From positions 12,400,001-12,464,000 of the forward strand of contig CM120640.1 in NCBI GenBank assembly GCA_051362555.1: DNA of 64,000 nt. Reading direction: 5' to 3'. The position numbers and the translations under genes were made by a program. The notes beneath the pieces are model-generated. The model saw nothing but the letters and a program-made list of their open reading frames with translations, had not been told where the DNA came from and did not search any database. The stretch comes from Lingula anatina (lineage: Eukaryota > Animalia > Brachiopoda). Numbering within the stretch: position 1 is the stretch's first letter; every line of letters begins with the position of its first letter. Below, in pieces: positions 1,014 to 47,779 of this stretch.

Positions 1014-4000
1014 AGCTTCCCAAGTCCATCTACCAGCAGCAGAAGAAATTCAGATTCCCCTGGCCTGGATGGAGTGGGACAGACAAGATTTGAGGTAAAA
1101 ATTTTGGAAAAAAAAGGTTTTTCATACTAACAGAAGTGAGTCAGAAACTTTTAATTTGATACTAGATAATCGCAGTAGACATTTGATGTTTTAAGGGACA
1201 AAATTAATAGGATGAATGAATGAACTAGCTGACCTCTGTATATACTAAAAGTCACCTCTCAGTCTTCCTTTCAAACTGAAGTATACATCCTGAGACAACA
1301 TTTTTTTCTCGTGACCTGCATTGAATAAAGAGTAATAAGCAATTCCTAATTAAACAAATATTTCTTTATTAAATCACTTCAAAAAGAAATATTTGCAAAC
1401 ATAATTAAGTATAGCTTCGAATGCGTTGAAACATACTGAATTTACTGCATTATCTTTCTTTGCAGATAAAGCATTCAAAAAAAAATTACTAATTAACCCA
1501 TTTCCATTTAATGACAATTGTGTCTGGCAAAGATATTGATAAAATTAAGCAAAAGCTCTCCCCTGGTGTTATACATTGTCTGTTCAAATAATTTAAGTGG
1601 GGAAGAAAAATCTGAAACTATAGTTGATCTCTGACATGATTGGATTGGTATTGGACTATCTGTACCCTAGCGGATCCCTGTCTGGGGGAGTATTACATTA
1701 GATAAAGGCTAGAAAAGGACAGTATTGAAAAAGGAATATTTCGTAACAGCCATTGGGGTCAGAAGCCACTTTTTGAAGTGAATACAGAAACCGCATTTGG
1801 CAGCACCCCTGAAGGATTTTGGATAACTGTGACAAAAGGGAAGTTCAATAAAGCATGGCTTGGTCCCCCCACAGGAGCCATAAAACACTGATTTGATTAC
1901 CACACGTGAACTGCCCCTGAAAAAAGCCACTACCCCACATGAGCAACACCCATGCCTGCTTCACAACCTTTTATTGAACTACATTAAGGCGCTACTTATT
2001 TAATTGATCTCAAAGCTCATCAAATATGCAGCTCACTTTATCAAGCATTGTTCCCCAGTGGCTGGTCTTTTATAGGGGGTTTGTCACGCATTATATACCT
2101 TACCACCCTCGGTCTCCCTTGCGATCATTGTGTTAGGGTAACCGTTGTAGAAACGGCCCAATAATTTCCACTAACGTAACATTGGCGTGACAATTAATGT
2201 GTTAAAAGTGGCCACCTCCCATTGATTCTCAACACCTGGTTTTTGTGGCTGTCATTAACTCCCTGCTTTGGGGGAGATGATTGCCTTTTTTGATGTGAAC
2301 AGTTGTAATGATAATGATGGTAATTGCACCGGGACCTGGACGTGATTTGAAGCATAATGCAGACGAGATGCTGGGTTGTGAAAGAAGTAATGAAAAAATT
2401 AATGATATGCATGGTTCCAACAGAGCTGGTGCTTTTGTTGTCGAACAATGTGGCTGTCAACTTTATGTCATAATAAAACTATCAAGCATTGGTCACTCAA
2501 AAATATGAACATAAAGGCATAATTTCTTCTTGGTTTATGGCATAGAATCACTTTATAAATTCTGTAAAAGACGGTGGCTGGTGACTAAGTTTTCATTAAT
2601 GTACAACACATTATTTTATTAGCCTGACTGTATATGATGCTGCAAAAAGTGGGTATAATGTTATTGAACATAAAAAAATGTTTTGTCTTGACTACTACAA
2701 TGGTTTAACAACTTGCAGTACTTTTCCTAAAAGGATTTTTTCCACAATGAATTAGACTATTTTTTTAAGAAAAAATGTTGATATTTGTGACTTTTGCACT
2801 GTAAAAAGATTACTCTTTAGAACTATGTGTATAACTGTACATTTAGCCCACTCACACCTGTGTCCCACTAAATTGAGTGCATTTAATGAACCATCTGGAA
2901 GAATCAATAGTAATTCTAACCAATACAACTTATGCAATATACAAAATAACAGTGGACTGGAATCACATATATAATTCATGCACTTCCATTTATCACCTTT
3001 AGTCTGTGGTCAGTCTTTTGTAACATAAATAATGTTCAATTATAACAGTAACATTCACCCCTATTTGACCTTTTGTCTAGCTAGGCCAGTTTTATCCAAA
3101 GGGTCTTTGTCAATTAGTTGATCTTGTAATAATGTGTGAAAACCCAAAAATTCTATAATTCCACGCACTATGCCCAACAGCAAAACGATGTATTTGTGTC
3201 CTGTTCACATTTCCAGCCTGGGGGATTTAAAACAATTAGCTGAGCTGATGGTCACTGTTGACCAACTTGGCAGTTAAATCAACACAGACATTGGGGACCC
3301 AGTGTCAATCATTGGCTGCTTGATTCCTGCCAGTGTGTATGTTAAAGATTATCCAAACAGTTTGACAGCATTCCTCCTGCAATGACCATTCAGGCTCATG
3401 TGACCAAGTGGAGTAATAGAATTGCACATTAATTTTTGATCGGATTAGATTTCGGGGTCATTTAGTTGATACAGTGTTTCTTAGTACCTCCAGGTATTGT
3501 TAAAGGGCTACTGCCAGAGGGGAGTTCATTTGGCAATATAAAGTCCCCTAAGTAAATAGTAAACACAACTGAAAGGTGAAATAAACAATAATTTTCCTAC
3601 TTGATAAAATCAAATGACTATAATTTTAGGGTGGCTGAGTTTGTTTTTCAGCAAGCAGCTGTGCTCAGGGGCAACTGCCTTAATATAATACAAGTTCCAG
3701 ATTATCTGTCACTCAAATCTGGAAAGTTAGACATTTTAACAGAACTAAAAACATTGGATGTAACAGGCTATACATTTTTGTGTGAAAGCTAAGCTGCTGG
3801 GGTATGTGCCCCAGGGATATTGAAATTTTACTTGTTATTTCAAATTGAAAATAGTGTATATCACTTTACCCACCTGCATCTTTTTCCAAATGCAGATATG
3901 TTAAAGGTATACATAAGTGTTAATTTTTCCACTCTGGTTTCTTTCAGACGTATTTGCGAATCAAAGCAAACCGACAGAATAGGCTAGCAGGTGAATACCT

Positions 4001-6215
4001 TACATTTATGATACTTTTATATCTTTCGAGTAATAAAAACATGTGCAGGTGTTCTTTTTTTTTTTTTTTTTTTTTTTTTCCAATCAAGTATTACTTTTCT
4101 GGCTTTGGTGTACATATGTAATGGAAATAAAAAAGGAAGGGGAATTTCATGTTATTTAATGGGAATGTACAAAATTCCCTAGCTAATTTCTTTATAATTC
4201 TTCCTTTTTTCAGCTAAAGCTAGAACAAGCAAAAGGAAGAGAAACCAGGAAGAAACATCTTGCCCTGTTTGCAATGAAAAGGTGATCGGGACACCAGAGG
4301 AGCTGAATGAACATGTGGAAAAATGTCTCAAAAAAGTAGGGTCAGATTTCCTGCCGCTTTGGTTAGAATCTATATATAAGGCAAAATGAAAGTGCAAAAA
4401 GAATAGAAGCATTTCCATTTTAGAATATTTACTTTTGTGTAGCTTCACTATTGATATTCAATAATCTATAATGAAAGATATTTTAAGATAAGTTCCAGCC
4501 AAAATTCAAAAGTATATTTTTGAATTTTTTATATTTAATTATCTTTTCAGCGAGACAGCGGAGAAGAGGAGGTGGTTGATATTGAAGGTGATCAGTTTGA
4601 GGAATATGAATGGGCTGGACAGAAAAGAATTAGAGCCAGCTCTCTGTTACAGGGAGGGATGGCTGGTAAGATTGAACTATTTTATTCTGAACATGAATGA
4701 TGGTTTCATAAGCATCACATCAAAAATGTTAAATTTTATACCAATTTTAGCAAAAACTTAAGACCACTGAAATTTGACAACATGCAATCTTTATCCATTT
4801 TATTCAGGTTCTGGCTTCCAAACATCCAAGAGATCCGAGTCTGATGAAGATATCAATTTGGATGTAGATGGAGACGATTCTGAACAATATGGTGGTGTCC
4901 AGTACACAGAAGCTGATATCATTCCATGCAGTGCTGACGACTCAGGGGAAGATCAGGAGAGAGAGGCCCTCAGGGGAGCAGTGTTAAGGTGAGCCACAAC
5001 AGAGAGTATTTTAGAAAAGCACTTTTTTGTGAATCCAAAATAAAAAATATTATACTTTGGAGATTCAATAAGATTTGTGATGACAAAAGGCTTTGAATAA
5101 TTTAACACATTTTTGTGATGGAATAGAGGGACTTTGATTACCTTTGATGATTTTCATTTCTAGAGGGGAAGGAACACAACCCAAGGCTATTTCTGCAGAC
5201 AGAAGTAAATGGTCCTCTGATTCTGGTAAGAAACTCTGATCTTGCTGGTTTATATAACATGTTTTGCATTATTTTTTTAGGTGTAATTTTTTCTCAAGCT
5301 AACTTTTCCTCAAGCTAACTAGTGCATTGCTTTCATATGAAGTGTTAGGCCAAAGTTGAAGGTGTCAAAAAAAAGTACATTGTCTGTAAGCATCATTTTT
5401 GCTTTTCAGCAGAACCTGGTACATCAGAAAGTCCAGACAACTCGGACGAGACTGTGTCCAGTTCTGAAACTGTCCAGGTTCAAGATCCCAAGGCTAAGGA
5501 GGTCATTCAGGCTCTTAAAGCCAAAGTGAAGGATCAAGAAGATCATACCAAGAAAGGGGACAAATTTAAATGCTTAATATGCATGGTAAGTGCTTCTATA
5601 TGTTCTACATGCATGCACAAATGCAAACTAGATATTCAAATAATTTTTCCACACTAGCACAGGTGATGTAATAAGATCAACGTGTATTTAGTATGTCCAA
5701 AGACCTCAGCTCTTTTTATATATTTTTATCAGTGAACTTGTTTCAGTCTCAAAACCTATAAAAAGTGTATAAATACAAATTTTTCATTGTTTTAGGAGCC
5801 TTATGCATCCCCTTTAACCTCCATTCAGTGTTGGCATGTCCACTGTGAAGAGTGCTGGTTGAGAACTTTGGTAAGTATACAAGTCATGTTAGAACTTTCT
5901 TTAGCCACACCCCAAAATGTTGCAAATTAAAATGTGTAAAATTGTCCTATTCAGGTTAATCTTTGAAGTCTGAATCCATTTGTAAAGTATTAAATATTGT
6001 GGACAAAACTGAAACGGATTACTTAAAATGATAAGATTGTTAACAGTATGTTGTCAAAAAGGGTATAATAAACATCATGTTTGGGTATAAGATAAACTTC
6101 TTTTGACTATCTTCCAAAAAATACTCTCTGTTTACATTTTCAGGGAGCCAAGAAGTTGTGCCCACAGTGTAACATGATCACCTCTGCTGCAGACCTCAGG
6201 AAAATCTACCTGTAA
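1014..6215 (+). CDS. RNF220: E3 ubiquitin ligase RNF220, 3' portion (5' exons upstream of window). Exons: 1014-1094, 3948-3990, 4214-4335, 4551-4665, 4808-4988, 5164-5225, 5410-5585, 5796-5870, 6144-6215
   Basis: Phase-consistent GT-AG exons translate to ...TYLRIKANRQNRL...CPVCNEK...HVEKCLKK...FEEYEWAGQKRIRA...DLDVDGDD-like INLDVDGDD...QYTEADIIPC...EREALRGAVL...KCLICMEPYASPLTSIQCWHVHCEECWLRTLGAKKLCPQCNMITSAADLRKIYL*, the recognisable RNF220 middle domain and C-terminal RING. NAGNAG acceptor at 5407-5412. Confidence 0.93.
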
Positions 6216-10483: not shown

Positions 10484-13400
10484 TTAAAAACTGTCTATTT
10501 CTGTAAATTCGCTCAATTCCTTCACAACATGGATAGTCTTCAGTTTAGCACTCTTTCTGATCTTGGATGTAATTTCCTCAGGATCCTCTCGACGGACAAG
10601 TGCTTTCTTCTCTGGAGGCTTCATCTTCCATAAGACAACAGGGGACTGAAATCAAAATGCCAGAAAAATAATGAACTTCAACAAGCATATTATGTGTAAC
10701 AATGCCCACTGACATCAGACTAACATTGGAGGCGTTTCATTTTTCTTTGTGATACTTATTATCAAAACTGCCTTGGAACTTTTTTGTAAGGTTCGACATA
10801 CCTATTGCAGTTACTTGCCCGTCACAAGTGATTTTCTTACAAATTTTTTTAATAGTGATTAAATTAAGCAGTTCCTTTTATTATATACAACTGATATACT
10901 TACATTGACACCCTTCTGAGATCGTTGATACTGAAATCAATCAAAGACAGAAGTAAATATAAATATGAAATACTTTGAAAATCATTCAAAATGCATTCAA
11001 AACTTGGGAAATGTACCAGTGCTTTTGGTTTACGCTCGTAACTAATTAAAATGTTTTTTCATGATGTTGCTGTAAAAGAATATATATCAGGCATAACTAT
11101 GCACTACATGTACAGTTACTCAATTACCTTGGTGGAAGCCACATAAGATGCTTTGACAGTCAAGACCACAGCATTCATAAGATTCTTGGCTGCTTGGATC
11201 AGAGAGGTGGCACTGTCAAGCTAGAGAAACAGGTAAAAGGTAAAAATATTGTACACATTTTGTGGCGGACTTCATAAATTACAAGTAGATGAGACATAAA
11301 AAAGTAATTTCTAATCCCACTAATTGCTGGTAATTTTAGCAAATAAATTATTTGTACAAATACAGTCAGTGGGACTTAACTTTAATAGACCCAAGATATT
11401 GACAGTGGACATTTTCCAATCATTGCCTTCCTTGTGAAAAGGGCATTTCTATTATTTTTTAATTTCATCATTTTTTTTTTTTTGGGGGGGGGGGGGGGAG
11501 GGTTGATTGCCTTTTGACAGTAAGGGGGTACTTGCTAGAGAATGTTTCTTCATTCAAATTTTATATGGGCACATATCTAATGCATCTAAATAATTCTTAT
11601 TTTCCTAGTCATTTCATTTTTCCTGTTGACAATACACTGCACATGTTGACCACTGCAAGCATTTTTTTTTTCAGTTGCAAAATTTAGTGCACGCATTGAT
11701 AGATTTTATCAATATTGTACACAACAGCAAGAAAAACACTGAGTGTTAAATAAAAATGTACAACTATGTACAACTTCAATTTTATATAAAGTGCCAAAAT
11801 TCCCGTCAATACAAATCAATGTAACTTTACTGAAACAACAAAAAAATTATAATGAAATTCATAGATGTTGAAAACAAATGATGGCAAAGCTTGCAAAAAA
11901 AGGCATCTAATGACAAAAAGAGATACATCTATGCAGACTTAAGATATCATCTACCAATAAAGATACATATTTGCCTAAACTATATATATATAAACTAAAT
12001 ACTACAACACTTTTGAAAAAAAAACAAGTTCCTATAATCAAAATTAAAATACTACAAGGACAGTGTGCTTAACCATTCATCTGTGTTGGTGGCCATCTAA
12101 CCTGTAAACATTTCTTTTACTTTACAGCACCAAATATCGGGAAGTTATAACAAAATCACGATTTGGTCAGTAATCAAAAATTCTGTTATACCCATAAATC
12201 CACTCCCCTTATTAGTGTTTGTATTACAAGGTTAAAAATCCACCTTAGCATATTCTGTGTATAACAACAACTAGGCAAACAACATCATGTGTCTAGTTGA
12301 GCAATAACCCCAGTTATAACACTGGGACTTGGACATACTATAGTGGGAGGTGCTTAAACTCAAATGCACATAAGAATATTGTGGTGCACTCTACAGAATA
12401 TGTTTCTACATTTCTACAAATTAATATGTCAATGATACAGTGGCATGAAAACAACAATAAGAATGTATTTTTAGCACTATTAATTCAGCACTATTATTTT
12501 ATCAATCAAAACTGTCAACCAAATAAATGAAAGCAAAAAGACTGCTTATTGATATTTTTGATTCTTTACCATGAAGTATTCATGCCCATGTATCCTGACT
12601 TACTATCAGCAGATGTACATGGTAAATAAGATGGGATGGGGTGGGATAGCAGGGAGCTGGTTGGAGGAAGAGGAAGAGGAAGGTGGGGCTTTTATACCTG
12701 CAGTACGTATGCCCAAGTCCCTAGAAAGCAATCTTTATTAATACTACATACCCCGGACACTATGAGCTCTCCACTGATGTTAGTGACATCAGCCTTGACC
12801 TTGCTGGTGATGTTCAACTGATGACAGTACAAGGCAATACGTTGGAGATATGCTATTAAGTCTTTCTTGGAATCAGAAACAGGGCACTAAAATGCAAGAT
12901 ACACACACCTCATGAAGCATGCAACACAAGCCACAACAACAACTATGGATTGTTACAGGAAAACCAGCAACGCAACCAACCACAACAGCAACATCAATGG
13001 CCACTGCATTGCACAGATGGGTGGGTGTTGTTTATTACATACCCCCGTCAATAACATCTCGCCACCCTGGGTGGTGACATCAGCTTTCACTTTGCTTGTG
13101 ATGTTCAATTGATGCGTGAACAGCGTGATCTGCTTCAGATATGACAGCAAATCACGCTTGGAGATTGAATCTGGGCACTGAAAAGTGGATGAGGAACTAG
13201 CATGTTAGTGATATATATGGGGGGCAGGGGACAAGGCACAGCCACCACTCTATAATGACTGTCTACTGTTGGGACTGGAGTGTGTGGGAGGAGCTAAAGG
13301 TCAAATACCATGACCCTACCAGATCATTGTCAACCACCATGCACCTGTAGCTCTCTTAATAACCTGGGGATGCAAAGGTTAAAACCAGGCTATGGATACT

Positions 13401-16400
13401 ATAGTGGTTGATTAGTGCTGGCACCTCCATATCCATGCAGTGGCACCAGCCAGGGACAGGTTAGTTCTTGTATTCATGTACTGTCTCCTCCATGCTACAC
13501 AGCTGTCTGACCACCAGACAGACAACCCAGCAACCACGACGGCTCCCAGTCGTTACCTACCCCTGATAACAGTACTTCCCCACTGTCCAAAGTGATCACA
13601 TCAGACTTCACTTTGCCAGTGATGTTCAACTGATGTGTAAAAAGAGCTATGCTCTTCAAATAAGCTTTTAAATCTTCCTTGGACCTGGAATCTGGACACT
13701 GTAAGTGGAAAATATGCACACTAGTCCTGTATGACTCTAGACTAAAAAGGTGATTACCAAGGGATGATTGGGATACAACAATAATGAATAATGTTAATAT
13801 ACATTGGGAGTGTCTCATTGAAAATACATCATAAGTTTACTATCTGAAAAAACAAATATTAATTAGAAACAGAGTACAATATTTGTCACCGACAAAGAAA
13901 ATATCTTATGCAAAGCAAAAGTTCATATGGAAAAGGTGCCAGATTCATCTTGGTGCTTCTTTTTTGGGCAAAATACTGCAAGAGACCAGAGCATGATAAA
14001 TATTTATACAAAAACAAACAATTAAGTCAATATGTAATTCTTATTCTGTTTGTTTAAGTCTTTTCTGAATAAAATGTGAATTACTTATTATTGATGAATA
14101 AACAAGTTTCTGTTCACATATACTACATCTATATCATAACCAAAATGCTGATTCGAAATCATATCATGACAACACATGCCAGAATCAGCAAGTATAATAC
14201 CTGGTCAGCAATTGTTCTGGCCAGTTTGTCCAGATTAGTTCCAGCTTCTGAGATCTTCTTGGCAGCATTGATGACATCCATAGTGGACTTCAGTGGACCA
14301 CGACCACTGAAAATATATTTTATTATTAAATACAATAAAATGTAAAAAATTATATCATAATCATTCCTGCTGCTTTATTTTGATAAATATCTATGCTGCA
14401 AAAACAACTTTAAGCTGCACTGAAATAGAACAGTATGAGTAAGCTTATAAAAACTTTTTGTGACTGAAACATAAATCATAATGATGAAAATTTTTCCTAT
14501 ATATTATGTTCTTACCGAGTGAAATCAGTCATCTCCATCATGATCATGCACATCTGTTTAGCCAATATGATGATATCATTTCCACTATCATCCCACTTGG
14601 CAATTTCTCTATCCAGCTTTGCCTTCTCCAGGCGGAAGTCTTCCACATGTTGCTGGATTTTCAGCTGTTCCTCAGGAGGCAGTTGTCTCATAAGAGCACG
14701 GTCTGAAGGTTCTCCCATAATGCTGTCAATTCTATCATACTCCTGGTCTGTGTAGTTGCTGTAGCTTGCTATTAAAGGAGATAAAGTACTGTTGTTATCA
14801 ATTTTTCATTAATTGGCACTGATTTAGGAATTAAGCCCTTTCTCAATTACCTATCAAAACTTTCTTTGCCAAAGTCATGCTATTTCTACTATTTTTGTTT
14901 AAGGCAATCCACCAACTATTTGACCCCATGCAACCTGCCTCTGTAAGAAACATCACTTACCCTTACTACGGGTCTCTGTCTCTGTATCATCATACTGATC
15001 TTCCTCAACATCAGATTCCTCGATTTCATCTGGTCCCTACATACAAAATGTTGCACATGTTTAACTCTTTAACAGAAAACATTTTGTCACAAAGACAAAT
15101 TTGTCAAAAAACCTTTCAGTGGTCAATACTTGTTTGTAATATATTACTTATCAGAATTTAATGATGCCAAAATAATTTATTTTTGAAAAAAATCTTCAAG
15201 TGGATCTGTTTCCTGTTACAAAATTTATATAAGCACATTTCTCAGGTTGCCTCAGAAGCACTAACCCTATTCATCAGCACAGCTCTGCGTATGTCACGGA
15301 CACCATCATATACAAGACGTGCAGCTTCAATGAACTCATTCTCATCAATTTCCCGTGGTGGATTGGAGGAGAGAGCATCCACTGCATCTTCTACTCTGGC
15401 AGCAAAGTTTGGCATCACTGAAACAGACGGGAATAATCAAATTTTGGGAATTCAAATTTAAAGGTTTTGGGCAAATGTGTGGGAGAGGATTTAATACTTG
15501 CTCATCTTGAAATTCCTCAAAAATAATATGCTGGTTGTGAAATAGTTTAAATCTATATATAACATTAAATTCACTTATAAACAGTATACTGACTCAGAAC
15601 TGAAAGAACACCTAAATACATCTGAAATTCAAGTTTTATAATTGCAGATTCAGGCTTTTGGTATAACATTTGAACAACGTGGCATTAGTTTTGTACCTTG
15701 ATCTCTGAGCATCACCACAGCCTCCATCACTCTCTCAGTGTAAATGCCAGGTTCATAGTTATCCATCTCTGCAGTGACCACATTGCAGACACGAGCAGAG
15801 CGCCCTCTGATGGCACCAGCTGTGCGATCCAGTGTATCAGCATCACTCTCTTGTAGTGCCAAGACACACTTGTTCACATCTTCCAGTATGTGGCTCTCTG
15901 GATGACAAATGAAAGATTATGTCAACATTGCACTAGGAGGGAGTCATGTTTCCCCTTGTAATGGTCTGAACCTGAGAACCATATTGACCATAGGAGAGTA
16001 ATCATACATTAGTCTAAAGTAAGACATTAATTTTCTTTCAAAATACTTCAGGTTTTTTAAATTGCATAATAAATTGAAACAAATGAAATAAAATTAAAAG
16101 GGTTTTTCTTCTTCTTTTCAATACCCATTACTCACATCTTTTTTCACTTAAACAACAAAAAGAAGACATCAGTCCAGCCTTAAATTTACCTGAGACAGCC
16201 AAGAAGTCATCAATGGTTGTGATATCATCCACAGCTTCTGTCAATACACGGACCTGTTTCTCCCAGGCATCCTTGAACACATCCATGTTCTCCATGGCAA
16301 CCTTGGAGCGTGGTCTAGCTGCCAGAATGCGGGCAGCATTGATAACCTGCGAATATGCCAATAATGATGCAACAATATTGATACTTCATAAAATTATCAT

Positions 16401-22020: not shown

Positions 22021-23461
22021 TTTGCTAGCGTCCTGAAAAACAAGAAACTCATGAAATCAGAATATGAAATACCCTCGGATATAATGCTCTAGAAATGAAA
22101 AAATACACATGATTGAAAGCCCCGCTTTTAATCATAAGGTTTGACGCTGTAACATATTAATTTACTGAAGAACTCGTTCAAAATATGAACCAGTATTAAG
22201 TAGAATATGCATGTATATATATCAATTACCACACGAACTTTGTTTTTGAACATCTAAAAAACTCACTACAAAGAAATTGCACAGTTAAAGCAATTTCAAA
22301 TGGGTTGGGAGAACAGATTTATTTTACATGATCCATGGCCTTCCCAGACAGGGAATGTTTATCGAATTAGTAAGACATAGATTCATTGCAAGAAATTCCT
22401 AAGTTAAGTTTTCCTCTTTTTTAGATTGGATACCAAATTTTAACTGTATTTTACCTACCTGCACAGGAGCAGACTACTCCAGAACCGAAACCCCCAGCTT
22501 AACCCTAGCTTATATATGATTTTCACTTGAAATTCCTCAAATTCCTATTGTATTTAAAAATAATGAATCATAAACCAGACGGTTGCCGTTTGATATACCA
22601 CCACTCCTCCCTCCTGTACAAGAAAATTCTTAGCCTCATATGCAAAAAAAAATTGATAAAATGTCACAATCATGTCATTTTCCCATTTTTATTAACAATT
22701 TCTTTTATTTGCATTATTTTTGATGGTATACATTCTTTGATAGATATGAAACATTTTAAGTTTGATTTATACAAGCGGGATGCAAATAATTAAATTAAAT
22801 AACAGACACAACCCACCTAATGTGCCTCCATTAAAAAAAGAGCTCCATTTTGCCCGAAACTTAAAGTGAAAAAGTAGGCCAACTCTGTGTCGCTGTTAAC
22901 ACATGTGTATGTGGACTACACTCAAAAAATTTAATTGTTCTTTGAAAGCCTGGTAAGTTAAAGCACATGTCTTATAATACATGTATGCCCTTATAATATG
23001 TAATTTAGACTAGATGAAAAGTCGAAATGAACGTCAAGTATTCGTATTACTTAAAAACCAAGGAGCCTGTTGCTACCAGTAGTACACTCTTGTACTCAGT
23101 AGTGTACATGTATTATATGGTATTGGTAGTCACTAATTCAATTAACCACTGTAACAGTATCAGCACTATTAGCCACAGTCTAAAGCTAGTAGTACGTAAG
23201 ATTGCATAATGTGCCCATTAAATCTTAGCTTATAAACGTGTAGATGTCATATTTGTCGGATTGCACAGTATGTATGTACCCTGTATATCTACCTACATGT
23301 ACATGGTACAGAGTTATTTTAGTTCATTTTGCTTGAGTTACATTTGATTATAATATTTTATCATTTTTAGTGTGCCTCGTGAAAGATTAATGCAGGTATC
23401 AACTTTATTGCAATTATATAGCTAATCTGCTACTCGTCTAAACACTAGCATGCCAGCATTA

Positions 23462-23718
23462 GGCTTCGTTCACATGCAATGTCTATTTTCTAAATTCTAT
23501 TTTCTATTCGCGCTATCTTATGATCACGATCTGTGCCCTGAATATCCCGCCGCGTAATTACTGGCAGCGCGAGCCAGTTACTTATAGCAACTTATAGTAA
23601 CTGGCTCGCGCTGCCAGTAATTACGCCGCGGGATATTCAGGGCACAGACCATGATCATAAGACATACCGCAAATAGAAAATAGAATTTAGAAAATAGACA
23701 TTGCATGTGAACGAAGCC
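23462..23718. mobile_element. Palindromic non-autonomous DNA transposon (MITE), PIF/Harbinger-like
   Basis: Near-perfect inverted arms of about 121 bp (23462-23582 / 23596-23718), termini GGCTTCGTTCACATG...CATGTGAACGAAGCC, and TTA target-site duplication (23459-23461, 23719-23721). TWA TSD and GGC...GCC ends are typical of PIF/Harbinger. Confidence 0.88.
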
Positions 23719-23867
23719 TTAGACTAGGGACACTGCACAGTTACATGTATCAGGTTTTGAAAATTTAGATAATGCTTATACTAGTAAATATATGAGTACA
23801 TAATATTTACTAGTAGGTATGGTATTTTTCAGGGCTCCTAACTGCAGGTTCTGCACTTGTCTTTATC

Positions 23868-30170: not shown

Positions 30171-30267
30171 ACTTGCACAGCTCGCTGTACCTGAACCCAA
30201 TCAGCAGTCAGCAGTGACTTCAACTTCCAAGTGACTTTGACTGAGAAGATCATTACGACAAGAAAAC

Positions 30268-31738
30268 ATGCAGAACCAGATTCATCTCCCGATCAGCGCT
30301 CTCCAGCAGAATCCAATGTTCCAGATGGCCCTGGCCAATGCATTCCCCGCTGGTTTCAACGTCCTAGGCCAGCCGCAACTGCACCCCGCTTTCCTGCACT
30401 CACCGTACGCGGCCAACCAGCTCAGCTACCGCCCCAGCAAGGCCAGCAAGTCCTTCATGATTGACGCCATCCTGGGAAGAGATGGGGAAAAAGAAAACGC
30501 AAGACCAGAAAGTGACCTGAGAGTGGACAGCGTCCACCCTTACCTGTCCTCAGCACACAATGGTTTCCGCAGTGCACTTAATCTTCCAAAAGGTAAATAT
30601 ATCTTTTAATATGTATTTTTATTAGGGTTGAGGTAAAAATTCCGGGTTAAAATGTGTTGTGTCTGAATAAAAAAAAAAACAGATACACCATGTTTTATAA
30701 TTTTTCTAATTCAGCAACACCGAATATTTCACCTATGAGAATTTTTTCAATATTACGATATTGATATTACTAAGCGTGTCAAAAAGACGCTTAAATAAAG
30801 CAAGCGAATTATTTGATTCCCCTACTGTAAAAAAGGGAAAAACTTTAATTTCACATATTATCACAAAAAAAAAAGAAAGAAAATAATAATAATACAAACT
30901 TACAAAATAAATACAGCTTTTGACACAGGTGTTAAAATCGATATATTCGATTGAATTTACTACCACCTGCAAGGAAGATCAGTTGGTCTAATGATGCCGT
31001 CAGGCCCTAATAAACCGATAGGTGTTGCGGCGCGTTCGATCATAAGTCAATGGTCCCGGAAAGGGTTGACTCCCCTGCGTGGTTTTGGTCGATAACATGA
31101 CTCGTTCTCCCCCACTGCGAACAGATCGAAGTTCCGATCATATTTCTCTTTCAACATCACAAAGAACGAAATTATCCGTGAAAAGTCCTGACCACAATTT
31201 TGTCTGTTGATTGGTTACTCAATTTTACTTCATCACTAATTGAGTCTACCTTGGCTTCATTACTAATGCTACTAGAGGTAATTGATTAGTATGAATTAAA
31301 GGTATTACATGGGCATTCCTTTTGAAATAAAAAGTATTTTCAATTACTGACTTTAGCCGAACATATTACTTATGTCACGTTTTCACTTCAGGTAAAGCCG
31401 ATATGAAGTCTTCCGTATCCGAATGGAAACAGAACAAATCCAAGCGCGTCCGCACCATCTTCACCCCAGAGCAACTAGAGCGTCTGGAAGCAGAATTCGA
31501 AAAACAGCAATACATGGTCGGCTCCGAAAGATCCTACCTGGCCGCGACGCTCAACCTCTCTGACGCCCAAGTTAAGGTGTGGTTCCAGAACCGCCGTATT
31601 AAATGGAGGAAGCAAAGCCTAGAGAAACAACAGCAGAGACTGAGACAGCTAGATCTCCTACACAGTGAAGAATCTGGCTGCGAATCCGAAGATGATGACA
31701 GTGCAAGTGACTGCGGCAGCATCGGCAGTGCTTACTAA
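30268..31738 (+). CDS. NOTO: Not/Noto-family homeobox protein, paralog 1 (exons 30268-30592, 31392-31738; 223 aa)
   Basis: eh1 motif SFMIDAIL in exon 1. Homeodomain [60 protein letters not shown]; QQYMVG.ER and RRIKWRK are diagnostic of the Not family. Phase-1 GT-AG intron. Confidence 0.92.
31007..31287 (+). promoter_or_regulatory. Putative intronic enhancer conserved between the two Not paralogs (partner 46560-46874)
   Basis: Colinear shared blocks CTAATAAACC, GTCCCG, ACTCCCCT, CCCCCACTG, ATCGAA, TTACTCAATTT, GGCTTCATTA, TAATTGATT in otherwise unalignable introns. Confidence 0.65.
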
Positions 31739-46128: not shown

Positions 46129-47696
46129 TTAGTGATCGCTGCCAGCCTCACTGCCAAAGTCGCTGGAAGTTCCAATGCTGGCGTTGTCGTCGTCTTCAGA
46201 TTCACAGCCAGACTCTTCGCTGTGCAGGAGATCTAGCTGTCTCAGTCTCTGTTGTTGCTTCTCTAGACTTTGTTTCCTCCATTTGATGCGGCGGTTCTGG
46301 AACCACACCTTCACCTGCGCCTCGCTTAGGTCGAGGGTGCCCGCAAGGTAGGACCTCTCGGAGCCGACCATGTACTGCTGTTTCTCGAATTCTGCTTCCA
46401 AACGCTCCAGCTGCTCAGGCGTAAAGATGGTTCGGACACGCTTGGACTTACTCTGTCTCCAACCAGGAGTGGCGGACAGTTTTTTCGGCTCCAATTTACC
46501 TAGAATAGGACAAGGGACGTTCATAAGTAACAACTACTAACTCCTTTGTAATCACCTTAAATCAATTAGACCAAAAGGATCAGAGAAAAAGTCGTCTTGG
46601 TTAATGAAGCCCGAAGGACTTCATTAGCAATTATGTCAAATTGAGTAATGACGATTTCAATTCAAGTATTACGACTAATAGATCTGGGGCCAATTTTGTC
46701 AATCGGCCATAGAAAAGGCCAGAATGGTTATTTTCGATTTTTTCTCAGTGGGGGTAGATGCCTGTAGTAAATCCATCGATTGAACACAGGTAGGGGAGTA
46801 AAACCATTCTCGGGACTATTGTGTATTTTTTTAAACCAATCAATGGACCACCATTAGATGCTGGGGTTTATTAGTTTAGATAAATCCTCTTTTAGAGCTG
46901 ATGAACTCCATACTGCACAAGATGGGATCATTAATTATTCAAGTCGGGAATCATTACAATAAATACATTGATCTTTGCACCTGTGGTTTTGCCTTTGACC
47001 TCGTTGCTTTTTCCTGTTGCCATGTGCGGTTTGTTGTCATTTTGTAAAACTCAAACAAATGCGTTTTTAAAATGTGCCGGGATGACAAAAACATACCCGT
47101 CACTTTAGTACATCATGGTAATACTACTTTGCCGAGTATTGCAACTTTTAAGAAACTTAATAGCCAGATTTGATTTTATCTTTATTTTTCAAAAAAATTT
47201 TCTGTATAATGCAGTTTGTGCGGAATTTTCCAAATAAAAAATCAGGTGCACGAGTAAAGATATAGGACCAGTTAACTGTTCACTTTACACTTACGAAAAT
47301 GATTTATCTACTTGAAAAAAAAAATAATAAACAACTAAATATAAAGTGCAAATTTATCAACCCACCTTTTGGCGTATTCAAAACCTGTCGAAGACCGTTG
47401 TTTAAGTTTGGGATCACACTTGTAGCCAAGCTATACGGATGGACACTGTCCACTGTGAGCTCAGGCTGTGGTTTGGTGTTTTCTTTCTCCCCATTTCGTC
47501 CTAGGATGGCGTCAATCATGAAGGACTTGCTGGTCTTGCTGGGGCGGTAGCTGAGCTGGTTGGCCGCGTACGGTGAGTGCAGGAAAGCGGGGTGCAGTTG
47601 CGGCTGGCCTAGGACGTTGAAACCAGCGGGGAATGCATTGGCCAGGGCCATCTGAAACATTGGGTTCTGCTGGAGACCGTTCAGTGGACTCTGCAT
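46129..47696 (-). CDS. NOTO: Not/Noto-family homeobox protein, paralog 2 (exons 47696-47366, 46499-46129; 233 aa)
   Basis: eh1 SFMIDAIL. Homeodomain [60 protein letters not shown]. Same phase-1 intron position as paralog 1. Confidence 0.92.
46560..46874 (-). promoter_or_regulatory. Putative intronic enhancer of Not paralog 2 (homologous to 31007-31287)
   Basis: Same ordered motif blocks on the minus strand. Confidence 0.65.
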
Positions 47697-47779
47697 CCTG
47701 ATTGTGACAGTTTTAAATATATAGTTGTTAAAAACTGTAGTTTAGGCACCGTTTGTGGAACACGAACTACTACAAAAAC

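Follow-up and report, generated by a model that had tools for sequence, protein, structure and literature searches.

The 64,000 nucleotides (nt) of the Lingula anatina genome analysed here (contig CM120640.1, positions 12,400,001 to 12,464,000; the window) carry an alpha-catenin gene (minus strand, 22020 to about 10490) whose first 15 exons are followed by three tandem homologous exons, 16A, 16B and 16C (hereafter A, B and C). RNA reads show that A and C are used in a mutually exclusive manner, with C dominant. We tentatively propose, at somewhat less than even odds, that a single site in the intron between C and exon 17 (the dock) pairs with an element located after A or after B (the selectors) and so helps the choice of exon, C being the default. 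An earlier note, made from the letters of this DNA, had claimed five competing long-range RNA pairings around the cluster, acting as a switch that picks one exon of three. The idea of a switch is retained in part: the exclusivity of A and C and a modest shared dock speak for it, but the network of five pairings finds no support and the use of B was not seen.

The exon cluster and its use

The three exons of the gene model have GT-AG borders, are in frame and in phase 0, and measure 138, 135 and 135 nt (A, B and C), each a multiple of three. With a mutual identity of 62-71% and their like length and phase they are tandem homologous exons. The A-B, B-C and C-17 introns measure 383, 156 and 1531 nt respectively, the A donor lies 674 nt from the C acceptor, and a canonical CTAAC stands 30 nt ahead of the B acceptor. 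All donors are GTAGGT or GTATGT and all acceptors AG; on a crude matrix built from 17 constitutive donors and 17 acceptors of the gene, the B donor equals the C donor and the three acceptors are mid-range. The three isoforms were all previously present in the annotation: exon A is 100% identical to L. anatina catenin alpha-2 isoform X4 (XP_013405995), annotated isoform X3 (P0003) includes B and isoform X2 includes C. A second annotated Lingula locus, on another contig (P0001, 359 amino acids), has an identical exon A and is either a haplotig or a recent duplicate.

Exon use was assayed in four of nine RNA runs, in which 6, 6, 25 and 30% of the reads were covered; a junction was listed when at least three reads from two starts supported it within one run. 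By run, 35, 9, 31 and 23 reads join exon 15 to C and 65, 20, 36 and 32 join C to exon 17, while 0, 1, 11 and 0 join exon 15 to A and 0, 2, 4 and 2 join A to exon 17. Over the four runs C accounts for 251 of the 271 junction reads of the cluster and A for 20, and the use of A varies by run from 0 to 18%. None of the joints A-B, A-C, B-C, 15-B, B-17 and 15-17 was listed in these partly read runs. One exon per mRNA therefore holds for A versus C. Eight reads join A to exon 17 and no A-C joint is listed, so the strong default exon C is skipped when A is used. A joint shifted by 3 nt at 10642 was rejected as a tandem acceptor, as it corresponds to a single-letter allele.

These counts bear on a simpler account without any dedicated switch, in which C prevails by default, A and B persist as seldom-used remnants of duplication, and double inclusion occurs too infrequently to appear in the list. 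The large share of C, the lack of any listed junction of B, the listing threshold and the limited share of each run that was read (6-30%) all go in its direction. But an independently used A would give A-C joints instead of the A-17 joints observed, the exon changes found in a divergent Lingula are all synonymous (see below), and the splice sites of B, with a donor equal to that of C, do not look like those of a leftover. We regard this account as quite unlikely.

Three other causes of the exclusivity were considered. Nonsense-mediated decay of frame-shifted mRNAs is ruled out, since the exon lengths keep the frame. Steric exclusion needs an intron or a donor-to-branch distance of about 50 nt or below, and the A-B and B-C introns are longer. 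Compared with the U12 consensus, all sites look U2-type, which speaks against an incompatibility between major and minor spliceosomes. As neither decay nor a very short intron explains the exclusivity of A and C, some switch is needed.

A proposed dock for two selectors

Duplexes were computed with nearest-neighbour stacking, simplified loops and a length penalty of 0.3 kcal/nt, and were compared with global and local shuffles. A scan without length penalty gave sprawling, meaningless duplexes; penalties of 0.2, 0.3 and 0.4 were compared and the nulls established at 0.3. The C-17 intron was scanned for a site able to pair with both upstream introns, and a single clear winner emerged at 12096-12078. 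Its partner after B is an element that the earlier note had already paired with it (pair 2). Its partner after A, 13523-13508, is absent from that note and engages the same dock bases at -23.1 kcal/mol. At penalty 0.3 the top A-B and the top B-C duplexes coincide on the same 17 nt of the 1531-nt intron, and dock and partners are unchanged at 0.4. Of 276 shuffles of each kind, 5 global and 7 local ones attained this shared-dock score; for the best duplex between the B-C and C-17 introns alone (pair 2) the counts were 26 and 18.

The selectors stand at a similar distance from their donors, +38 to +53 for A and +24 to +46 for B. They share the pattern TCTGT-N-GTGGYCA, defined after the fact, of which the 64 kilobases hold three occurrences (0.09 expected): the two selectors and the complement of the dock. 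With selectors restricted to +15 to +60 the score was reached by 0 and 1 of 551 shuffles and by 1 of 79 real tiles, but these windows were chosen post hoc and we do not rely on them. The 100 nt following the donors of A, B and C show no significant homology among themselves (134, 119 and 363 of 1000). In silico, one site downstream of the cluster is thus complementary to an element after each of the earlier exons, the arrangement expected of a downstream dock.

In the proposed mechanism, pairing of selector A with the dock would hide B and C, pairing of selector B would hide C only, and the two would compete for the same dock bases. A predicted local hairpin would leave selector A inaccessible for the most part, in line with how little A is used. 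A tissue-specific protein might tip the balance, as Fox- and Esrp-type motifs lie beside the selectors. Another factor would have to keep A and B silent during the use of C, because a downstream dock is unable to silence them when C is used.

A bidirectional arrangement would supply this missing repression of A. In such a case an upstream dock in the intron between exon 15 and A (13942-13927) would pair with 13436-13418 and hide A. The helix concerned is the second strongest ungapped one in the region (-22.4 kcal/mol of stacking), but the helix between the 15-A and A-B introns was reached by 24 of 365 shuffles and between the 15-A and B-C introns pairing is poor (352 of 365). We hold this arrangement to be very unlikely.

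Weighing the proposed dock

Several results weigh against the shared dock. Inclusion of B was not seen in the reads of the four RNA runs at the listing threshold. Taken alone, the best duplex between the A-B and C-17 introns is reached by 189 and 225 of 276 shuffles and is thus below the shuffle mean. On the unrestricted shared-dock statistic the antisense strand scores equally well or better (-11.8 vs -11.3). Lowering the penalty to 0.2 keeps the dock but gives it another best partner in the A-B intron. Since several statistics were computed, p values of 0.02-0.03 carry little weight.

The folding of selector A goes the same way. After local opening costs the A-dock pairing keeps only -1.2 kcal/mol, because selector A sits in the hairpin, and its fold probabilities in five reference folding windows are 0.0, 0.54, 0.02, 0.0 and 0.91, i.e. 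at least 0.5 in just two. The B-dock pairing does not exceed 0.10 in these five, and reaches 1.0, 0.99, 1.0 and 0.37 in four folding windows that start near the B donor. Ensemble folds are very sensitive to the ends chosen and constitute weak evidence either way.

Natural variation was read from four of 11 DNA-type runs over 12040-13720, with 40 of 63 substitutions listed. For run X10, a divergent Lingula, the list comprises 16 of 16 changes over 12707-13720 and 8 of 10 over 12046-12458; for X8 (10 of 20) and X1 (3 of 7) it is incomplete, and a missing change proves nothing there. From run X11, a different organism, no ortholog was obtained; its sole contribution was an unrelated piece of 37 nt. 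Runs X10, X18 and X20, which carry the same species label, have in common a distinct haplotype whose introns diverge from the window by several percent, a hint of cryptic lineages.

The contig of X10 carries, at full depth, a G to A change at 12093 within the dock. This change puts an A-C mismatch in the B-dock pairing (-26.6 to -19.4 kcal/mol), whose partner at 13000 is unchanged, and turns a G-U of the A-dock pairing into A-U (-23.1 to -23.7). When the listed X10 substitutions are introduced, indels left out, the probabilities in four folding windows become 1.0, 0.43, 0.99 and 0.01 for A-dock and 0.02, 0.27, 0.99 and 0.01 for B-dock, which is thereby down to 0.01-0.27 in three of four. In X1, a 4-nt insertion in selector A weakens its pairing from -23.1 to -22.1. 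Of the compensatory substitutions for which the earlier note had asked, none is present within the species among the listed changes, and the single change at 12093 favours one dock pairing while disrupting the other. Nor are the arms of the earlier note's pairings depleted of substitutions, 2 of the 19 listed intronic changes falling in their 129 bases vs 2.5 expected, and 5 changes occur within the 115 nt around the dock. The B-C intron, with 1 of the 19 changes, shows no significant constraint (P 0.18). The exon changes of X10 are synonymous in 5 of 5 cases, two of them in A and two in B, which suggests that selection acts on all three exons.

The five pairings of the earlier note

The ten strings quoted for these pairings are all found at their coordinates on the minus strand, and the five can be drawn as described. 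Their computed sense/antisense energies (kcal/mol) are -26.2/-21.7 for pair 1 (hereafter stem 1), -23.3/-26.7 for pair 2, -17.2/-17.2 for pair 3, -11.6/-11.6 for pair 4a and -18.6/-16.1 for pair 4b. The antisense version is the stronger one for pair 2 and the sense version for stem 1 and pair 4b; pairs 3 and 4a do not differ between strands. After opening costs, stem 1 keeps -13.0, pair 2 -7.7, pair 4b -7.0, pair 4a -4.6 and pair 3 -1.3 kcal/mol.

In the comparison with shuffled sequences that had been suggested, only stem 1 comes out above chance by itself. Its energy was matched by none of 247 global shuffles of the C-17 intron and by one of 247 local ones (a null with loops of up to 5 nt per side vs 7 for the observed duplex, itself loop-free), and region-wide a helix of -30 or below anywhere in the four introns arose in 17 and 19 of 1000 shuffles, i.e. 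about 2%. Among 39 real tiles one was stronger, a long palindrome. The network as a whole shows no excess of ungapped intronic helices: at -16, -18, -19 and -21 kcal/mol we counted 47, 12, 9 and 3 for 41-44, 13-14, 7.5-8 and 2.5-2.6 expected (1000 shuffles). Chance supplies helices of the strength of pairs 3, 4a and 4b several times in the region, as the earlier note had itself cautioned for its short arms. Rfam gave no match at E values up to 1.

Stem 1 had been presented as one of the competing elements, but the 368-nt intronic loop that it closes contains no exon, and it can coexist with either dock pairing, so that it does not act as a selector. Its fold probability is 0.0 in most long folding windows and 0.06, 1.0, 0.0 and 1.0 in four that start near C. 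The listed changes hit neither stem 1 nor pairs 3 and 4b. The loop enclosed by stem 1 varies a great deal: one allele, of 298 nt, has 24 changes, and the other a replacement of 118 nt. A 1-nt deletion in X1 lengthens the stem by two pairs (-29.1 to -31.2 kcal/mol). Stem 1 is probably genuine, but it is a separate helix inside the C-17 intron and would make that intron shorter. Pairs 4a and 4b, with a probability of 0.0 in every fold where they were scored, are likely due to chance. Pair 4a, moreover, does not compete with pair 2: they share no bases, 4a adjoins the dock and the two pairs cross as a pseudoknot. A change at 13457 in X10 breaks 4a (-13.2 to -9.0 kcal/mol), and a change of the compensating kind is absent from the X10 tally. 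Pair 3, with a fold probability of 0.10-0.29, is probably also due to chance.

That all five pairings form and compete is consequently the most improbable of the readings that we considered. The arms do exist, stem 1 beats the shuffles, and the listed X10 changes spare stem 1, pair 3 and pair 4b; the best duplex between the A-B and B-C introns is also rare in shuffles (8 and 14 of 276), though it consists of 13428-13397 with 12990-12958 and not of pair 3. To the lack of helix excess, the null fold probabilities of 4a and 4b, the broken 4a and a stem 1 that encloses no exon is added the existence of equally strong helices that had not been listed, e.g. 13942-13932 with 13428-13418. The 13428-13397/12990-12958 duplex (minus strand) is long and G-U-rich, reaches -37.5 kcal/mol, i.e. 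is stronger than pair 3, and would loop out B. Its net energy after opening costs is -0.7 kcal/mol and its fold probability at most 0.02, because 13411-13401 pairs locally with 13340-13330.

Possible protein regulators

The introns of the cluster also contain motifs of known splicing regulators. UGCAUG, the Fox-type site, is found three times vs 0.85 expected (237 of 5000 shuffles), twice after A and once before C. The A-B and B-C introns have a GC content of 49% and 44% vs 22-34% in the other 18 introns, and 3.9 and 3.8 GTGG/TGGT per 100 nt vs 0-1.0. As in FGFR2, the motifs thus follow the exon that would be activated and precede the one that would be repressed, with an excess that is borderline.

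A switch by proteins only would then be conceivable: a cell-type-specific Fox- or Esrp-type factor would activate A and repress C, and the predicted pairings would be a by-product of GC- and GU-rich sequence, which would indeed inflate them. The layout of the UGCAUG sites, none of them altered among the 16 of 16 listed X10 changes, agrees with this account, as do the density of GU-rich motifs and the variation of A use among runs. The borderline motif excess weakens it, UGCAUG being common in the other introns of the gene (6 in 5944 nt), and it leaves unexplained why the best duplexes of both introns meet at one site. We judge it unlikely on the whole, though it follows close behind the shared dock, and protein control and a dock can both hold.

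Evolution and predicted consequences for the protein

A metagenome scan confirmed 95 loci, of which 80, from other animals, were kept; 17 span both flanking introns. Neither a second copy of the exon nor the selector pattern was found in any of these 80. Oyster isoforms (Crassostrea/Magallana, Saccostrea) nevertheless have a second version of the same exon, and read-through frames (P0192, P0194) put the ancestral copy ahead of the other, separated from it by 23 codons (about 69 nt). In a tree of 45 columns whose bootstrap had not settled, Lingula A and B are sisters (89/93) and the oyster copies stand apart (96/95). The separate branches and the opposite order of copies suggest that the duplications in Lingula and in oysters were independent. 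In PMC6071210, two selectors for a single dock arise when an exon is duplicated along with one of the arms of a stem, a model that the sister relationship of A and B fits.

The exon corresponds to residues 767-811 of alphaE-catenin. According to PMC6269467, L785, I792 and V796 contact actin and the beta-hairpin 799-810 is the dimer interface. The three contact residues are invariant in A, B and C, as are 20 of the 32 positions before the beta-hairpin vs 4 of 12 within it. Because the actin contacts are invariant and the beta-hairpin varies, comparison of the three sequences predicts that the switch would tune actin bundling rather than actin binding.

Isoform X1 of Lineus longissimus (P0199 vs P0018) carries 10 extra residues directly behind the exon. 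An insert at this same junction also occurs in vertebrate alphaN-catenin, though a literature search for it found nothing. Myriapod-type sequences (P0062, P0068, L074 vs P0058) differ sharply at the beta-hairpin end of the exon and might represent an alternative copy. Repeated change at this exon (Lingula, oysters, the Lineus insert) points to a recurrent tuning site.

Put together, these elements would form an insect-style switch of dock and selectors, gated by a hairpin, that swaps the dimerising beta-hairpin while the actin contacts stay fixed, with a natural dock allele shifting choice from B toward A and with oysters arriving independently at the same protein swap through a 69-nt intron in place of RNA structure. 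As a complete scenario we find this rather doubtful, more so than the dock by itself. The cluster is small enough for a minigene, and the pair of alleles at 12093 would provide a natural built-in test if the dock is real.

Features of the window

Table 1. Positions of exons, predicted pairing elements and Fox-type motifs in the alpha-catenin exon cluster (window coordinates).
Feature	Position	Strand	Remarks
Exon 15	14201..14306	-	constitutive, upstream of cluster; gene model and RNA joints
Exon 16A	13561..13698	-	138 nt, minor form; 12 reads 15-A and 8 reads A-17
Exon 16B	13043..13177	-	135 nt; annotated isoform X3; no RNA junction listed
Exon 16C	12752..12886	-	135 nt, ancestral-type (tree), default form; 98 reads 15-C and 153 reads C-17
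Exon 17	11128..11220	-	constitutive, downstream; gene model and RNA joints
Predicted dock	12078..12096	-	C-17 intron, 858 nt before exon 17 acceptor; X10 substitution at 12093
Predicted selector A	13508..13523	-	-23.1 kcal/mol with dock; 4-nt insertion in X1
Predicted hairpin over selector A	13503..13521	-	local fold
Predicted selector B	12997..13019	-	pair 2 element, also target of pair 3; weakened in X10
Stem 1, 5' arm	12707..12721	-	+31 to +45 from C donor; no change among the 16 of 16 of X10 here
Stem 1, 3' arm	12324..12338	-	no change among 8 of 10 X10 changes listed for the contig
Pair 3 arm	13435..13444	-	10 bp without mismatch to 13009-13000; shares bases with a UGCAUG; probably chance
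Pair 4a arm	13456..13464	-	likely chance; broken at 13457 in X10; fold probability 0.0
Pair 4b arm	13421..13434	-	likely chance; fold probability 0.0; also pairs with 13942-13932
UGCAUG (Fox-type)	13434..13439	-	downstream of A
UGCAUG	13338..13343	-	downstream of A, upstream of B
UGCAUG	12918..12923	-	36 nt upstream of C acceptor

Elsewhere in the window, an RNF220-like gene at about 3900-5650 (plus strand; Pfam PF15926) converges on alpha-catenin. Upstream of the alpha-catenin start codon, 23461-23719 is a near-perfect fold-back of about 260 nt, with arms 96% complementary, that resembles a small inverted-repeat element. Two near-identical homeobox genes, at 30241-31735 (plus) and 46132-47741 (minus), are inverted relative to each other, with exon arms 84% and 91% complementary; Pfam gives only Homeodomain for them, and they resemble Not/noto genes.

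Comparison with known systems

The class of mechanism is itself known. We found no literature on this cluster, or on dock and selector pairing in brachiopods or molluscs, in a search whose coverage of subscription papers was poor, so that the absence is unproven; genome-wide catalogues of splicing (e.g. PMC8728262) may include the three exons. Should the dock prove real, a mechanism described chiefly from arthropods would also operate in a brachiopod, and in a core adhesion gene. The insect clusters of 14-3-3zeta, Mhc, MRP1 and Dscam1 exons 4 and 9 form the downstream class of docks and selectors in PMC6071210 and PMC4691838. Like the Lingula cluster, they are described there as tandem homologous exons with a dock after the last exon and an element after each earlier one, the last exon needing none. 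They differ in phylum and gene, and in being backed by cross-species conservation and mutagenesis, whereas the Lingula dock is a prediction accompanied by within-species variation without compensation. Drosophila srp pairs in both directions (PMC4691838), and the candidate upstream helix of Lingula could likewise hide A. In contrast to srp, the Lingula helix does not exceed chance and lacks a partner in the B-C intron.

In FGFR2, both arms of the IAS2-ISAR stem lie between exons IIIb and IIIc, and the earlier note was wrong to place this stem around IIIc. According to PMC2471395 and PMC5703972, the stem activates IIIb and represses IIIc. IIIb and IIIc are switched via Fox factors and gcaug elements (PMC2471395), and Esrp binds GU-rich motifs with the same positional logic (PMC5703972). 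The resemblance to Lingula lies in an upstream exon turned on while a downstream default is turned off, with gcaug or GU-rich motifs and an intronic stem. The difference is that in Lingula a Fox- or Esrp-type factor is a candidate suggested by motifs.

The oyster exon pair is like the Lingula cluster in that the same exon was duplicated and the extra copy is divergent at its 3' end. It differs by having two copies, the ancestral one first, by a spacing of about 69 nt that suggests steric exclusion, and by its separate branch in the tree.

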